Source: an uncultured Planctomycetia bacterium (lineage in GTDB: Bacteria; Omnitrophota; Gorgyraeia; JABMRG01). Taken from it: DNA of 45,410 nucleotides. A program made the position numbers and the translations under genes. How positions within the stretch are numbered: position 1 is the first letter of the stretch; every line of letters starts with the position of its first letter. The notes below the pieces were generated by a model. That model searched no databases, was not told where the DNA came from, and was given only the letters and a program-made list of their open reading frames with translations. Positions 28,957 to 43,907 of the stretch are shown here, in pieces. The stretch is from the NCBI GenBank assembly GCA_964523875.1, contig CAZGAS010000003.1, positions 1 to 45,410 of the forward strand. Direction: 5' to 3'.

Positions 28957-28985
28957 TTGCACCCCTCTTAAAAAAAGCGTAAAAT
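28957..28985 (+). promoter_or_regulatory. Sigma70 promoter with upstream A/T tracts, for the lysine-rich gene pair
   Basis: TTGCAC, 17-nt spacer, TAAAAT; very AT-rich 28908-28952; strong SD GGGAGGTG before ATG 29027. Confidence 0.65.
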
Positions 28986-29026
28986 AAAATTAATAAAATA
29001 TTTCTGAAGGGAGGTGAAAATATAAA

Positions 29027-29350
29027 ATGGCAACAAAAGTATTAAAATGTAAAATTAAAAGAGAAAAAGGTTTTCTTTATTATTTGGATAAAAAAGGAAA
29101 TGTTTCAAAGGCAACGATGGCTCGTGGTAAGAAGAAAGGCGGCAGCCCTAAGGTTGTTGTTAAAGCAGGTATTATTAGGGAAAAGGGGTATCTTTATTTT
29201 ATAGATAAGCAGGGTGATGTTGCAAAGGCAACGATGGCACGTGGTAAGAAAAAGAAGAAGGTCGCCAAGAAGAAGGTAGTAAAGAAAAAGGTAGCAAAGA
29301 AAAAAGCCAAGAAGAAGGTAACGAAGAAGAAAGCCAAGAAGAAGAAATAG
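29027..29350 (+). CDS. Highly basic protein: two tandem 39-aa repeats plus an H1-like KKKVA tail; putative nucleoid-associated protein
   Basis: REKGFLYYLDKKGNVSKATMARGKKK and REKGYLYFIDKQGDVAKATMARGKKK repeats; poly-Lys tail; strong SD. Confidence 0.8.
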   Translation: MATKVLKCKIKREKGFLYYLDKKGNVSKATMARGKKKGGSPKVVVKAGIIREKGYLYFIDKQGDVAKATMARGKKKKKVAKKKVVKKKVAKKKAKKKVTKKKAKKKK

Positions 29351-29390
29351 CATATAACGGCTAAACCTTTTACTAAAAAAGGAGGGAAAC

Positions 29391-29500: not shown

Positions 29501-29561
29501 AACAGACAGCCCCTTTTAGCAGAATGCTTAAAAAGCTTATTGCGAGAAGGGGCTTCCTGTT
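29501..29561 (+). terminator. Long hairpin after the lysine-rich pair (probable terminator or RNA stabiliser)
   Basis: AACAG..AGCCCCTTTTAGCA / TGCGAGAAGGGGCT..CTGTT; U-tract weak. Confidence 0.6.
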
Positions 29562-29573
29562 ATGTAAATAAAT

Positions 29574-32396
29574 ATGAATAATAAATACATTACAATAAAA
29601 GGCGCAAGAGAGCATAACCTGAAATCTATCAATCTGAAGCTTCCGCGTAATGAACTTACGGTAATTACCGGTTTGTCAGGTTCGGGAAAGTCTTCACTTG
29701 CCTTTGATACTATATACGCTGAAGGCCAGCGTAAATATGTTGAGAGTCTTTCCGCGTACGCGCGTCAATTTTTAGAACAGATGCAGAAACCAGATGTTGA
29801 CCATATAGAAGGACTTTCGCCGAGCATAGCTATACAGCAGAGAAGGGCTGGTTCAAACCCCCGCTCTACAGTTGCGACTGTTACCGAGATACATGATTAT
29901 TTAAGGTTGCTTTTTTCAAGAATAGGCAATATCTATTGCTATAAGTGCTCTAAATTAATAACCCACCAGTCCGCGCAGCAGATTATAGACAAGATAAACC
30001 AGTACATTATTAATACGCCTGTTGTAATATTAGCGCCGGTTATACGTGGTAAAAAGGGTGAGCACAACGATCTTTTCAATAATATAAAAAAGAACGGGTT
30101 TATACGCTGCAGGATAGACGGGAAAATATATGACCTTGCTGAAGATATTAAGCTCAATAAAAACAAAAAACATAATATCGAGGTTGTGGTAGATAGATTA
30201 GTGATAAAGCCTAGCACGCGTAAACGCCTAGCTGATTCTATTGAAACCGCTTTAGGCCTTGGCAGTGGATTAATTATTGTCTCTATACAGCCTCTTGCGC
30301 AGACAGAAAACCAAACACCTAAAACTGAAACACTATACAGCTCTCAAAATGCCTGTGTCGATTGCGGGATAAATTATGAGACACTTGAACCTCGCGTGTT
30401 TTCTTTTAACTCTCCATACGGGGCCTGCCCGGCTTGTAATGGATTAGGCCACAGTACGGAGATAGATCCCGATCTTGTTATACCGGATAAATCCAAATCC
30501 ATTAGAGGCGGCGCTATAGATCCATGGCGAAAAGGCGGAAAGTCTTTGCTTTTATATTATTATAAGCTTCTTAGCGGGTTTGCTGATGATTATCATCTTA
30601 GCCTTGATAAACCGTTTAAGGGCCTTAGTAAAAGAACGCAGGATATTGTTTTATATGGAAGCAGGGACAAGGCGAGAGAAGGGGTATATTTTGAAGGGGT
30701 TATCCCTAACCTGGAACGCCGTTTTAAAGAGACTGATAGTGAATATATGCGTAATGTTATCCATGAGTACATGTCAGTGCAGCCCTGCACTCGCTGTAAA
30801 GGCAGAAGGCTTAAGGAAGAGTCTCTGTCAGTAAAGATTGCACAAAAGAGTATCGCGGATATATGTAGTTTCTCCATAACTCAGGCCTTTGATTTTTTTA
30901 GTAACCTAAAGCTTAACGCCAAAAGTAAGCAGATAGCAAGGCAGATACTAAAAGAACTTAATAGCAGGCTCAAGTTTTTGTTAAATGTAGGCTTGGGTTA
31001 TCTTACCTTGGATCGTATCAGCTCTACGCTTTCAGGCGGGGAGGCGCAGCGCATCAGGCTTGCTACCCAGATAGGAGCCGGATTAGTAGGTGTTCTCTAT
31101 GTACTGGATGAGCCAAGTATAGGCCTTCACCAGAAGGATAATTCCAAGCTTCTTTCCACGCTTCAGGCCCTACGCGATATTGGTAATACTATTGTTGTTG
31201 TAGAGCATGATGAGGCTATGATAAGAAGCGCGGATTTTGTTGTGGATTTAGGCCCCGGTGCCGGCAAAGAAGGTGGAGAGTTGATATATAGCGGCCGCGT
31301 AAAAGGCCTTTTGAAGAACAAGGCTTCTCTGACCGCGAAGTATTTAAATGGTGGCCTGAGAGTAGCTCTGTCTGGTAATCCCAGAGATTACAAAAAAAGA
31401 AAAAAACTTGTTATCAAAGGGGCGAGCGAGCACAACTTAAAGGGGATTGACGTCTCTTTGCCCTTGGGTACATTTAATTGTGTAACAGGCGTGTCTGGTT
31501 CAGGAAAATCTACATTAGTAGATGAGATACTCTTCAGGGCGCTTGCGAAGAAATTCTATAATTCTACTCAAGCTCCGGGCAAGCATAAAAAAATATTCGG
31601 AAGTGAGCATATAGATAAAGTAATAGTTGTAGACCAGTCACCTATAGGACGCACGCCGCGTTCTAACCCCGCGACTTATACAGGCGCGTTTGGTTATATA
31701 AGAGAGCTATTTTGCAAGCTTCCTGAAGCGAAAATAAGAGGGTATAAAGCAGGCCGGTTCAGTTTTAATGTTAAAGGCGGCAGGTGTGAAATTTGTGAAG
31801 GGGACGGGGTAAAAAAGATAGAGATGCATTTTCTTCCTGATGTTTATATTCAATGTCAGGCTTGCAAGGGGAAGCGTTTTAATCATCAAACGCTTGAGGT
31901 CAAATACAAGGGCAAGTCCATATCAGATGTGCTTGAGATGGCTATTGATGATGCCCTGGAGTTGTTTGCTAATATCCCTCCTGTATATAAAAAGCTTAAG
32001 ACTCTCTCTGATGTTGGCTTAGGTTATATCGAACTCGGCCAATCCGCTACAACGCTTTCTGGTGGTGAAGCACAGAGAGTGAAACTTTCAACAGAGCTTT
32101 CAAAGCAAGCAACCGGCAGGACCCTCTATATTCTAGATGAGCCTACTACAGGGTTACATTTCGCGGATGTAAATAAGCTCTTATCAGTATTGAACAGGTT
32201 GGTTGTTCAAGGTAATACAGTACTGGTTATAGAACATAATCTTGATGTTATAAAATCCGCGGATTATATTGTAGATTTAGGCCCTGAAGGTGGGGAAAAA
32301 GGTGGTAATATAGTTGCCTCCGGTTCTCCTGCTGAGATTGCCAAAAATAGATATTCTCATACAGGACGTTACCTTAAGGGAGCATTTTCTTTTTGA
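29574..32396 (+). CDS. uvrA: Excinuclease ABC subunit A
   Basis: GAREHNLK, two Walker A motifs ([16 protein letters not shown]), two LSGGEAQR signatures, zinc-finger CxxC pairs. Confidence 0.98.
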
Positions 32397-40158: not shown

Positions 40159-41704
40159 ACGTTCCTACATGTACAATAGTTTTTCTCTCTATTACGCGAT
40201 TCTTTTGGCAACCAGTATATTATTTATAATCCACCCCACATTATCCGCGCCAAGCGCGCTTGCGGAGAGCATACAGGAGCCGTCGCTCGCGGGTTCTTTT
40301 TATTCTAAGGACCCCGCGGTGCTTAAGAAGAGAGTAGAGGGTTTTATTGATAATGCGGAGCCTGGACCTATACCGGGTGATATATCGGCTATTATATCAC
40401 CGCACGCGGGTTTTCGATATTCTGGCAGAATCGCGGGTTATGGTTTCAAGGCTATTAAAGGTAAAGGGTTTAATACAGCAATTATTGTCGCTCCAAGCCA
40501 CCACCATTCCTTTGAAGGTATCGCAGTGCTTGATAAAGACTCTTATCTTACCCCGCTTGGCAGTGTGGCGATAGACAGAGATCTTACCAAGAGGTTTCTC
40601 TCCTTTGATAAAAATATCAACTATTATATCCGGCCATTTTTAAATGAGAATTCCGTAGAGACACAGATACCATTTGTGCAGGAGGCACTGCCCGGGGCGA
40701 GTATCGTTCTTGTCCTAACGGGTAATGGTTCGTATGATACATGCATGCTATTGCGTGACGTGCTTTACGCTGTTATAGGTGAGAGGAAAGATATTATTCT
40801 TATTGCCAGCACTGATATGTCCCATTATAATCCTGATAAGATAGCACGCATAATAGATTCCGCTGTTTTGGAAGAACTTGAGGAATTTAACCCTGAAGAA
40901 CTCTTTTTGAGGTTTTCCGGTATGCCAGCCAAGGAGAGGCCATGTGGGAGCACAGCTATAATCGGTGTTATGCTTGCTGCACGTAAGCTGGGCGCGGATA
41001 AGATTAGTATACTTAAATACGCGACATCAGCCGATGTAACAGGTGACGCCAGCGCTGTTGTGGGTTATGCCTCCGCGGCGGTCTATAAAAGAACAGGTGA
41101 TACCCGCGTGGCAGTTAAAAAACAGAGAATGGAGAAAGATATGGACAGGCTGCTGAATACCAAAGAGAAAACGCGCCTTCTTCAAATTGCGCGAGAGACC
41201 CTCAAGACATATCTGGACAATGGCAAGAAGTTGGAGATAAATGAGGATGACCCGGTTTTACGCAAAGAGATGGGGGCGTTTGTTACGTTACATAAAGATG
41301 GACAGTTGCGAGGATGTATAGGTAATATTATAGGCAAAGGCCCGTTGTACCAGACAGTTAGTGACATGGCTATACAGGCAGGTACGCAGGATCCGAGATT
41401 TCCCCCTGTAGTGGGCGGGGAGCTTGATGATATCGATATAGAGATATCTGTTCTCTCACCGCTTAAGAAGGTGGATACCCCCGACGAGATTATTATGGGT
41501 AAGCATGGTGTGTTGGTAAGGAGAGGGCCTAGAAGCGGTGTATATCTTCCACAGGTAGCTGTTGAGACAGGCTGGAATAGGCAAGAGTTTATGGACTCTC
41601 TATGCATGCACAAGGCAGGGATACCTCGAGATAGTTGGAAAGGTAGTGGCTGTGATATATATATATTCAGCGCTGAAGTCTTTGGTGAAAAAGAAGCAGG
41701 ATAA
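40145..41704 (+). CDS. AmmeMemoRadiSam protein B (Memo-like) fused to protein A (AMMECR1-like), with signal peptide
   Basis: Memo motifs AGSFY, PHAG..YSG, STDMSHY, PCG, VVGY; AMMECR1 motifs GAFVTL..LRGCIG, DPRF, LPQVA; ATG 40145 follows GGAG. Confidence 0.88.
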   Translation: MNLCKRSYMYNSFSLYYAILLATSILFIIHPTLSAPSALAESIQEPSLAGSFYSKDPAVLKKRVEGFIDNAEPGPIPGDISAIISPHAGFRYSGRIAGYGFKAIKGKGFNTAIIVAPSHHHSFEGIAVLDKDSYLTPLGSVAIDRDLTKRFLSFDKNINYYIRPFLNENSVETQIPFVQEALPGASIVLVLTGNGSYDTCMLLRDVLYAVIGERKDIILIASTDMSHYNPDKIARIIDSAVLEELEEFNPEELFLRFSGMPAKERPCGSTAIIGVMLAARKLGADKISILKYATSADVTGDASAVVGYASAAVYKRTGDTRVAVKKQRMEKDMDRLLNTKEKTRLLQIARETLKTYLDNGKKLEINEDDPVLRKEMGAFVTLHKDGQLRGCIGNIIGKGPLYQTVSDMAIQAGTQDPRFPPVVGGELDDIDIEISVLSPLKKVDTPDEIIMGKHGVLVRRGPRSGVYLPQVAVETGWNRQEFMDSLCMHKAGIPRDSWKGSGCDIYIFSAEVFGEKEAG

Positions 41705-43907
41705 GGCTTGCTGCGCAGAATATGGCGGCTATAAAGCAGCTAGTGAATATTCCAAGGATAGGGATTATGATAAGGCTGGTTATAAGTGTACCTATTGCTG
41801 CGCCAAGGAGATCATATCCCCATATAATTGACGCGGAACAGGCTGGCGAATGTTTTTTTTGCAGTAACGTGACAGCTACAGGAAACTGAGCTCCTGTAAG
41901 CATCCCGGATGTAAATATCATAATATAGAATATATATTCAGCGGTTTGCAATGGTGTTATGGCGCTAAGCTTGATAACAAAAGGCGCTGATATTATATAC
42001 AGGCATAACGTTGCCATCAACCACTGGAAGAGTTTGTATAGATTGTTGAATCTATGTAATTGCTGGTTAATGATATAACTCCCCGTCGCCAGCCCCATCA
42101 TAAAGAGAGCTATTAGAAATCCCGCCTTACTATAGACATATCCATAATTTATCTGGAAGGAGAGCAGTATTACTATCTCCAGGGTAATACCGGCTGCTCC
42201 ACTTGCGGCTATCGCGAAACGTATAATATAGGCAGAAGGATCTTCTTTAAATTTGACTAAAAAGAGCCCGTAGAACAAAAACAAAATTATTATACAGATT
42301 ACGCTAAGGGTGCTTATTTGTGTAACGGCGTTAAAGAGCCATGCTATATGTGGCTGGAATTTAATGTTCCAGAGCACCAGGCCATAGTAGAAGCAGATAG
42401 GATGAAAATCCGTGTTTATACCCGCGGTATTATATTCAGCCTTCAGCCTTTTTGTTAAGTAATTGAGTGTGTCAGGATAGTACCTGTCTCTTATATGGTG
42501 CTCTGTCAGGAAGTTCGTATTGATACCTCTTGCGTGAAATCTTTCTACTAAGATTTCAGGCCTTTTTGCCATAATAGCCGGGCTGTCAGAAGCGATGAAG
42601 ATAAGATTCTCGCCGGGTATATATTCGACATATCGGAATACGCTTTTAAGGGTACTAAAAGCGGACGCGTTATACCTGGCCAATTCATTGCTTATTATAG
42701 ATTCTTTTGATGAGATGCGCGTTGCGAGTATGCCGTTTGCCTTAAGGTGTAACCGCGCTATTTTGTAGAACTCTCTTGTGTAAAAACGATTGATGCTGAG
42801 CGTGACAGGGTCAGGCATATTGATTATTATCAGGTCAAACTTATCTTTTGTTCTCTTCAGAAAAAAACCCGCGTCCGCATGTACTATCTTAAGCCTGGGA
42901 TCCAGAAGAGTCTTCTTATCCTGGCTGGGCAGGAACTTTTTGCTTACCTGCAAAATCTCCGGATCGAGCTGTAGATATATCAAGGATTGGGGGTTATGTT
43001 TGAGGACCTGTCTTAGGATTCCACCTATGCCATTGCCCAAGAATAGTATATTTTTCGGAGAAGCGTGCTGAAGCATTATAAGATGCGCAAACCCCTCATT
43101 AAAGGCCTCATCCTGCGTAGTAAATAACAAGGTGTCGTTTTCATATATATTGAATGTATCAGCTGATTTTGTGACACTTATGTTTCCATACGGAGAGTTT
43201 TTGTAATAGGCCACCTCATAAGGGTGCCATCGCAGCCTCTCTGATATTTTTTGCAGGTATTCTGTAGCGCCTGATGAAAAAGCGATAACAAGAATCAGCG
43301 GTATGAGATATATGTATAACTTTTTTCCGCGGGTAATGCAGGAGGCAAATATAAGGTTTATAAGTATAAGGCCCGATGTTATCTGGAAATGATTAAAATA
43401 TCTTATTAATAAGAATGTGAAGATTACGCCGGCTGCGGTTGCTCCAAGCGCCTCCAGCACATAAGCGGTACCGGGGGTAGCCTCTTTTAGAGCATCAGTC
43501 TTTAACATTTTGCACGATAGTATAAAAGACAAGCTTAGCAAGGCGGAGAGAGGTAAGAGCAGTAGCGCGCATATTGACATTATCTGTAACGGACCAAGAG
43601 CCTCGTATACGGGTATTTGGAACACATATCTTACAATCCTGGATAGGAAGATGGTGATTGGAATTAGCGCGGATACTACTAGAAGCGTTATGGAGAAGGC
43701 ATGCGCGGGTATTGTTATTCTTTCAACAAGATAGCGCCCCAGGACAAGGCTGCCTATAGCCGCGCCAACAAGCCATGTGGCGATAATAATACCCATAGAG
43801 AGTTCATTGCCGGAAAAGTTTACTAGGAGTTCTCTTATGACCATCACCTGGCTTAATATGGCATTTATGCCCACGATACATGCGGCTATATACGGCAATC
43901 TTTTCAT
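41667..43907 (-). CDS. Membrane-fused spermidine-synthase-like protein (TM domain, aminopropyltransferase fold, TM domain)
   Basis: About 7 N-terminal and 6-7 C-terminal TM segments; SPYGNI, LFLGNGIGG, DPRLKIVHADA, DLIIINMPDP, FYTREFY. Confidence 0.82.
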   Translation of the reverse strand: MKRLPYIAACIVGINAILSQVMVIRELLVNFSGNELSMGIIIATWLVGAAIGSLVLGRYLVERITIPAHAFSITLLVVSALIPITIFLSRIVRYVFQIPVYEALGPLQIMSICALLLLPLSALLSLSFILSCKMLKTDALKEATPGTAYVLEALGATAAGVIFTFLLIRYFNHFQITSGLILINLIFASCITRGKKLYIYLIPLILVIAFSSGATEYLQKISERLRWHPYEVAYYKNSPYGNISVTKSADTFNIYENDTLLFTTQDEAFNEGFAHLIMLQHASPKNILFLGNGIGGILRQVLKHNPQSLIYLQLDPEILQVSKKFLPSQDKKTLLDPRLKIVHADAGFFLKRTKDKFDLIIINMPDPVTLSINRFYTREFYKIARLHLKANGILATRISSKESIISNELARYNASAFSTLKSVFRYVEYIPGENLIFIASDSPAIMAKRPEILVERFHARGINTNFLTEHHIRDRYYPDTLNYLTKRLKAEYNTAGINTDFHPICFYYGLVLWNIKFQPHIAWLFNAVTQISTLSVICIIILFLFYGLFLVKFKEDPSAYIIRFAIAASGAAGITLEIVILLSFQINYGYVYSKAGFLIALFMMGLATGSYIINQQLHRFNNLYKLFQWLMATLCLYIISAPFVIKLSAITPLQTAEYIFYIMIFTSGMLTGAQFPVAVTLLQKKHSPACSASIIWGYDLLGAAIGTLITSLIIIPILGIFTSCFIAAIFCAASLILLLFHQRLQR

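Follow-up and report, generated by a model that had tools for sequence, protein, structure and literature searches.

HU and IHF proteins (PF00216) are small, basic, and near-universal within their own lineages, and actinobacterial HU carries Lys-rich C-terminal extensions. In Crenarchaeota, Sul7d (Sso7d/Sac7d) and Cren7 are small basic beta-sheet chromatin proteins (PMC3592393, in the part available). Short-period Lys-rich repeats occur in chlamydial Hc1/Hc2 and in AlgP; the copy number of the Hc2 pentamers varies between relatives (PMC2848022, in the part available), and H1-like Lys/Ala tails such as that of AlgP can serve in polyphosphate granule organization (PMC9239181, also in part). Here, we report P0001, a basic protein with two copies of a 39-residue repeat and a polycationic tail, encoded in the window (the whole 45,410-nt stretch analyzed; contig CAZGAS010000003.1, assembly GCA_964523875.1, an uncultured Planctomycetia bacterium placed in the Omnitrophota by GTDB), together with its relatives in bacteria, archaea, and viruses. 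On balance, we think it fairly probable that P0001 binds DNA as a new nucleoid-associated protein and that its tail has a condensing role.

P0001 and its family share with HU/IHF their small size, basic character, and near-universal presence within their own lineages, but they belong to an unrelated fold class, and P0001 is not matched by the PF00216 model. With Sul7d/Cren7, they share a length of about 60 to 80 aa, an all-beta structure, a very basic composition, apparently high expression, a lineage-patchy distribution, and the lack of sequence-specific motifs; by analogy, Sul7d/Cren7 are probably the best functional guide to how P0001 acts. Whereas Sul7d/Cren7 have one SH3-like barrel, the family duplicates a three-strand unit internally, and its members come from bacteria, DPANN archaea, and viruses but not from Crenarchaeota. 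The Sul7d/Cren7 Pfam models matched neither P0001 at E ≤ 10 nor any of 58 members at E ≤ 0.1, and Sul7d/Cren7 were absent from the VIA-align rows (66 chains at Z ≥ 2 for the core) and from the Foldseek PDB searches, an absence from listings that does not exclude the fold.

As in Hc1/Hc2 and AlgP, the tail of P0001 and the product of the neighboring mini-gene P0002 consist of K/A/V short-period repeats encoded by tandem units of 12 to 15 nt, and the repeat copy number varies between relatives, as it does for the Hc2 pentamers (PMC2848022, in part). Unlike in those proteins, the repeat is appended to a folded conserved core and is encoded again as a free 27-residue peptide. The preliminary description had likened the tail to H1 and Hc2 in composition only, and this was accurate: P0001 has no HC2 profile match at E ≤ 10, and only a fused relative, P0276, matches that profile, below threshold (17 bits versus a cut-off of 40). 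The ~40-aa repeat also resembles the blades of LDL-receptor class B (YWTD) propellers, whose G-x-L-Y-(W/F)-x-D ... G aligns with G-Y-L-Y-F-I-D-K-x-G of the family; unlike those blades, the family is cytoplasmic, lacks a signal peptide, has one or two repeats of three strands each, and is strongly basic, and the per-repeat similarity is not significant.

The kind of protein, small, basic, and architectural with an H1-like tail, is already known. Literature searches found no paper on the family; within their reach, its fold, its spread across domains, its relation to HU, and its pairing with an oligolysine mini-gene are likewise unpublished. PF27482 may be a very recent Pfam entry under which part of the family, or its tail, already falls; PF27482.1 is attached to the relative P0117 (104 aa) in the protein collection, and the accession was not found in the literature searched.

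Gene, repeats, and expression signals

The window is ordinary housekeeping chromosome from a small genome (G000; 1.41 Mb, 95.85% complete), in which the P0001 gene is single copy. Features of the locus are listed in Table 1. The only large minus-strand open reading frame (ORF) of the window (41667-43904, −) encodes 745 aa, an unusual size for a polyamine synthase; its sole Pfam match is a spermine/spermidine synthase domain at residues 268 to 419.

Table 1. Features of the P0001-P0002 locus, in window coordinates
Feature	Position	Strand	Basis
Putative sigma-70-type promoter: TTGCAC (28957-28962), 17-nt spacer, TAAAAT (28980-28985), preceded by A/T tracts	28957..28985	+	Conservation; function inferred
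Shine-Dalgarno (SD) site of P0001, GGGAGGTGA, 9 nt before ATG	29009..29017	+	Sequence
Coding sequence of P0001, 107-aa basic protein (stop included)	29027..29350	+	ORF and translation
Repeat 1, residues 1-39: GFLYYLDKKG hairpin, MARG motif, 3 predicted strands	29027..29143	+	
Repeat 2, residues 40-78: GYLYFIDKQG hairpin, MARG motif, 3 predicted strands	29144..29260	+	
Polycationic tail, residues 74-107: K/V/A/T only, five-codon tandem array, predicted helical	29246..29347	+	
SD site of mini-gene, AAGGAGG, 5 nt before its ATG	29379..29385	+	Sequence; invariant in 4/4 genus genomes
Mini-gene P0002, 27-residue oligolysine peptide of K-K-K-V-A units, in a frame different from that of P0001	29391..29474	+	
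GC-rich terminator-like hairpin, ending 13 nt before the uvrA start	29501..29561	+	RNA fold and conservation

The P0001 gene is genuine and strongly conserved, and its product is tiny and highly positively charged. The preliminary description had placed two 39-aa repeats 117 nt apart in the ORF at 29027..29350, and the ORF, DNA, and protein self-alignments agree on this: the two 39-aa halves align with 23/33 identities (pairwise alignment, E = 3e-16, far above chance), and the DNA copies (29054-29136 versus 29171-29253) are 80% identical at a 117-nt offset. That the tail is made only of K, V, A, and T, as also described there, is true in translation for residues 74 to 107. These 34 residues are encoded by a 15-nt (five-codon) tandem array of 5.6 copies (29251-29331), and the length of the tail differs by whole codons among four genus members. 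The core is under purifying selection (pN/pS, 0.10 to 0.26 in 28 pairs from 8 genomes); a low-complexity artefact in place of a gene was rejected on homologue conservation and pN/pS.

The 3′ parts of the repeats (29108-29136 and 29225-29253) are identical at 27 of 29 nt, as read by eye, and both repeats in this genome carry an otherwise unusual K-A-T-M-A-R-G, with a K-to-T change absent from relatives; together, these suggest local gene conversion between the repeats. Across 172 proteins, residues 28 and 67 co-vary (R/R in 55, M/M in 35, C/C in 15) and are identical in 65%, versus 25% expected. Local gene conversion is one explanation of this co-variation; a contact across the pseudo-dyad is another.

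For the promoter, support comes from conservation across relatives rather than from a consensus match. CTTGC(A/G)C, the 17-nt spacer, TAAAAT, and the upstream A-tracts are kept in all five related genomes aligned, with hexamers and spacing invariant or nearly so, whereas a simple consensus promoter scan reported no site upstream of P0001, the −35 element matching TTGACA at 3/6 positions. The earlier proposal of a promoter of its own with AT-rich upstream tracts is thus borne out by conservation, although the consensus scan reported none. The very strong SD proposed alongside it is likewise present: GGAGGTGA (29010-29017) is an 8-nt match to the anti-SD complement, a length reached by only 8/962 long ORFs of the genome, a background kept crude by starting every ORF at its first ATG. 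Strong SDs also precede 12/12 single-repeat homologues, and an anti-SD match of at least 6 nt was found in 46/77 homologues elsewhere. Such strong expression signals suggest that P0001 may be highly abundant.

The P0002 ORF, which the preliminary description did not mention, starts 40 nt past the P0001 stop. Its SD is a 7-nt match (reached by 38/962 of the same crude ORFs); its ATG, SD, and frame are kept in 4/4 genus genomes, where indels occur only in multiples of three, and its 15-nt unit shows 97% regularity. In L044, a more distant Omnitrophota genome, the family gene is followed by a version of 19 codons. That the mini-ORF extends the tail, by read-through or a frameshift, was rejected on its other frame, its own SD and ATG, and its retention in 4/4 genus genomes. 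The long tail and the presumably co-transcribed mini-gene are additions of this genus and its close kin. In a genome-wide scan, P0002 was one of only two K-rich mini ORFs in the whole genome; the other K/R-rich mini ORF, outside the window (contig C8:2024-2119, +; 31 codons, AAGGAG SD), presumably resembles a bS22-type basic ribosomal microprotein.

Downstream, the hairpin folds at −29.6 kcal/mol (z, −5.4), with 0/200 shuffles folding equally well, and its stem bases are conserved in the genus alignment. It has no clean U-tract, and no terminator was reported there by a simple scan and no match by Rfam. Promoter, P0001, P0002, and hairpin can be read as one two-gene transcription unit with putative transcript ends. 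The following uvrA (ATG at 29574) is without a visible SD and has no space for a promoter of its own downstream of the hairpin, so it may depend on read-through of the hairpin.

Family distribution, architecture, and HU-family gene number

P0001 had 2,156 homologues at E ≤ 0.01 in a 90%-clustered protein collection (best E, 1e-38), most of them 74 to 84 aa long and labeled "hypothetical"; a profile search gave 1,255 clusters at 50% identity, and a pattern scan confirmed at least 576 loci in species-representative genomes. The best 80 loci came from Omnitrophota, Marinimicrobia/Neomarinimicrobiota/Fidelibacterota, Planctomycetia-labeled metagenome-assembled genomes (MAGs), Elusimicrobia/Endomicrobia, Myxococcota, Deltaproteobacteria, Nitrospirae, Halanaerobiales, and Clostridia among bacteria and from Woesearchaeota/Nanoarchaeota (DPANN) among archaea; nearly all were in MAGs, with no cultured strain among the record titles of these 80. 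The ESM Atlas matches all fell in unnamed clusters of this family, in which Elusimicrobiota, Nanobdellota, and Omnitrophota predominate; none of these clusters carries a common Pfam 38.1 family. Bacterial, archaeal, and viral members share 55 to 70% identity. In two alignments (A1, 43 sequences; A3, 58 sequences), G, L, Y, D, K, G, and M-x-R are invariant in both repeats, and the family signature was found throughout its length: K-V-x-K-x-G-I-K-R-E-x-G, the hairpin G-(Y/F)-L-Y-(Y/F)-x-D-K-x-G, M-A-R-G, and a basic C-terminal end.

The family is therefore widespread across bacteria, DPANN archaea, and viruses, yet patchy within phyla. In the window's phylum, it is present in 151/301 sampled genomes, as a single copy and all-or-none by taxonomic family (41/41 in f13, 0/17 in f4), and in a second phylum, that of genome G354, it is present in 75/151. 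At loci of the window's phylum, nadX precedes the family gene in 17/17 cases with upstream DNA and uvrA lies downstream in 11/19. In another bacterial lineage, uvrA is directly upstream on the same strand (L047, L048, and L062), a call made by checking one cluster representative against Pfam. On viral contigs, the homologue is encoded at 8/8 loci, and 6 of these (5 distinct, L027 and L028 being one element) are situated within ~3 kb of DNA-metabolism genes, namely, primase/helicase, dCMP deaminase, DNA methyltransferases, ParB-methylase, and exonuclease. A tblastn search against deposited phage genomes and plasmids gave no family match.

The architecture is modular: a single repeat stands alone at 12 loci (among L031-L043) in other taxonomic families of the same class, as proteins of 40 to 47 aa, or of 62 to 66 aa with a K/V/A/T tail; genes of 40 to 47 codons encode conserved stand-alone proteins and could easily be missed by gene callers. 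At 77 species-scan loci, the median length was 78 aa, and a tail of at least 20 residues was present in 8/77, from several phyla, with a composition that differs by lineage (R-rich in Myxococcota, K/A/V-rich in Endomicrobia and Clostridia). The long tail is thus lineage specific and was gained repeatedly on the same core, and polycationic tails occur on single-repeat forms as well. The domain-plus-tail architecture given in the preliminary description accordingly holds for the window's protein but not as the family norm, most members being 74 to 84 aa long with a short basic end. Core-only members have net charges of +5 to +26; mildly basic members occur in Marinimicrobia-type genomes (+5 to +8), and several viral copies have no basic end. 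The recurrence of K- and R-rich tails points to a polyanion as the partner.

Fusions of the family module are heterogeneous and all singleton clusters, and some may be gene-calling artefacts. In P0177, the double repeat stands at the C terminus of a ParB_N plus HTH_ParB protein; other fusions involve DoxX (P0236), a transmembrane (TM) segment with an OmpA/MotB-like domain (P0200), TIR, HEAT, GAF/zinc ribbons, and a sigma-54 activator. A PD-(D/E)xK nuclease in P0210, a by-eye impression, was dropped, as there was no Pfam match at E ≤ 0.05. Multi-repeat relatives were seen in metagenomes (P0124, 354 aa; P0123, 886 aa); P0124, likewise a singleton cluster, strings six repeats together with acidic Glu/Asp/Ser linkers, a charge pattern opposite to that of the small basic forms.

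Family carriers in two phyla have fewer HU-family genes than non-carriers do, HU-family genes being counted as PF00216 matches per genome and not as strict copy numbers. In the window's class, two or more PF00216 matches were found in 5/150 genomes with the family versus 28/43 without it (hand tally); the family-less genomes with two or more were 15/17 in f4, 2/3 in f9, 5/5 in f14, 5/5 in f24, 0/7 in f10, and 1/6 in others. In the second phylum, three or more matches were found in 5/75 genomes with the family versus 69/76 without it, and the control family CSD was not depleted (45/75 with versus 33/76 without). Fewer HU-family genes in family carriers suggest overlapping roles. The family-less lineages of the window's class span more than one order; f4 forms its own, with the family in 0/54 genomes. 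The relation is confounded by shared ancestry, relatives not being independent, and in the second phylum it may go back to a single deep split. The seven genomes of f10 are without the protein yet have one HU match each, the window's genome itself keeps one HU gene (sole PF00216 match, C10:25641-25907), and two HU matches persist in family-carrying genomes of the Marinimicrobia type and of Elusimicrobia.

Similarity searches and predicted fold

The family has no Pfam or NCBIfam model that passes and no solved relative. Searches of P0001 and relatives against Pfam, NCBIfam, and PHROGs gave nothing above any cut-off, and a PDB sequence search with P0001 alone gave PBP4 as its best hit (E = 0.57); the preliminary description had not recognized the protein as HU/IHF, H-NS, Dps, or a ribosomal protein, in keeping with the lack of any Pfam, NCBIfam, PHROGs, or PDB-sequence match that passes threshold. 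Sub-threshold profile matches (choline-binding repeats, DUF5050, DotY, FaeA, and Proteasome) were treated as noise or beta-hairpin likeness; the commonest in Pfam was the propeller-type DUF5050 (11/58 members). With the family profile against the PDB, the only matches below 0.01 were YWTD propellers of LRP6/LRP2 (E = 0.002 to 0.009; 12 distinct sequences), with no single stretch significant. The corresponding Pfam family, PF00058 (Ldl_recept_b), had no match to P0001 in the Pfam scan and none in 41 genomes at E ≤ 0.001, the window's own included, and control genomes were also without a match.

AlphaFold, run with the family alignment, predicted whole P0001 at pLDDT 88, with the tail as one long helix, and the core alone at pLDDT 90.6 and pTM 0.73 as an all-beta structure of six strands, 3 per repeat; the beta-rich module of the preliminary description agrees with this model. 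With the full-length and core models, Foldseek found no match at E ≤ 0.001 in PDB or BFVD, and wide VIA-align searches with both found no row at Z ≥ 5; the top weak VIA-align rows (Z, 2.1 to 3.0) were the LDLR, LRP4, and LRP6 propellers, lectin propellers, and engineered two-blade fragments. Taken with the LRP profile matches, these rows raise the possibility that the repeat is blade-like, a lead and not a finding. A homodimer prediction for a single-repeat relative scored 0.20 versus a mark of 0.42, which weighs neither for nor against a dimer.

Proposed role and alternatives

The unnamed P0001 family comprises small, basic, all-beta proteins that look abundant and most likely act as architectural DNA binders alongside HU, and we infer that P0001 itself binds and compacts DNA. 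This reading draws on charge, recurrent polycationic tails, translation signals, the inverse relation with HU, viral DNA-metabolism neighbors, uvrA adjacency, and rare fusions; moreover, since members occur in bacteria, archaea, and viruses, the partner has to be something that all three possess. Each 39-aa repeat would form a three-stranded beta-meander, and two repeats would pack as one pseudo-symmetric unit, as two chains may do in single-repeat relatives. The conserved Lys/Arg loops (G-I-K-R-E-K-G and M-A-R-G-K-K) and the tyrosines would face the DNA backbone or groove without sequence specificity. The genus-specific K-K-K-V-A tail and the free 27-residue oligolysine peptide, made from the same transcript, could then provide charge neutralization and bridging in the manner of H1-like tails. 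Against a DNA binder, no profile or fold ties the family to a known nucleic-acid-binding family, the best weak similarity is to beta-propeller blades, which are usually protein or ligand binders, some members are mildly basic, fusions are heterogeneous singletons, the HU relation is confounded, and the window's genome retains HU.

RNA could be the target instead of DNA, with P0001 serving as an RNA chaperone, a ribosome accessory, or a hibernation-type factor, although we judge this unlikely. P0001 is small and very basic and has a strong translation signal, like ribosomal microproteins, and the family is highly conserved across domains; exposed aromatics on beta-strands are typical of RNA and single-stranded DNA binders. 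N-terminal ribosomal protein chains appeared among the weak fold rows (Z, 2.4 to 2.8; rmsd, 7 to 9 Å; not significant), but no NCBIfam or Pfam ribosomal protein profile matched P0001. A core ribosomal protein would not be patchy within phyla (151/301 and 75/151), and the loci examined show no ribosomal or translation operon, their neighbors being nadX, uvrA, glycosyltransferases, plsY, and Omp85. Also against an RNA role, the inverse relation is with the DNA binder HU and not with the RNA chaperone family CSD, and the viral neighbors are DNA-metabolism genes.

Nor do we give much credence to a generic binder of polyanions or surfaces (polyphosphate, acidic membrane lipids) or a protein-protein adaptor, in which the basic tails would be accessory and DNA not the main target. 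H1-like Lys/Ala tails can organize polyphosphate granules (PMC9239181, in part), but no PP_kinase gene (PF02503, polyphosphate kinase 1) was found in the window's genome at 95.85% completeness. The fusions P0200 (TM and OmpA), P0236 (DoxX), and P0145 are membrane proteins whose double repeat lies on the cytoplasmic side, yet these fusions are singletons; some members are weakly charged, and there is a faint propeller-blade likeness in both sequence and fold. Such a binder leaves the relation with HU number and the viral replication-module context unexplained. The boldest reading, a free-standing beta-propeller-blade peptide whose chains assemble into a ring (e.g., of six blades from three double-repeat chains) that serves as a scaffold, whether or not nucleic acid takes part, is drawn from sub-significant similarity (LRP6/LRP2 YWTD profile matches at E = 0.002 to 0.009, propellers and two-blade fragments as top fold rows at Z = 2.1 to 3.0, sub-threshold DUF5050 in 11/58 members) and from the existence of stand-alone 40-aa single repeats, and it is highly improbable, given that no matched stretch is significant alone, all Z scores are below 5, PF00058 finds nothing in 41 genomes, and the model has 3 strands per repeat, not four, with AlphaFold confidently folding two repeats as a monomer.

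Returning to the architectural DNA binder, its widest form is one that we advance tentatively, as somewhat doubtful: the family might be a major, so far unrecognized class of chromatin protein, common to bacteria, DPANN archaea, and the viruses of both, in which a 39-aa blade-like beta unit, used as a dimer or an internal duplicate, takes on some of the work of HU/IHF paralogues and, in this genus, is joined by a protamine-like 27-residue peptide, so that an H1-tailed binder and the free peptide would form a two-component condensation system.

The stand-alone 40-aa single-repeat forms are relevant to repeat-protein evolution, and the independent, recurrent polycationic tails and the free oligolysine mini-gene form a natural series for the tuning of DNA compaction by cationic tails. 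Since members are short, easily synthesized, and confidently predicted, DNA packaging besides HU and histones in these organisms is testable in vitro. If P0001 and its relatives do bind DNA as proposed, a widespread family (at least 576 species-level genomes and 1,255 clusters) would have been overlooked as a basic component of chromosome organization in lineages known in these data only from uncultivated assemblies, namely, Omnitrophota, Marinimicrobia-type bacteria, Elusimicrobia, and DPANN archaea.
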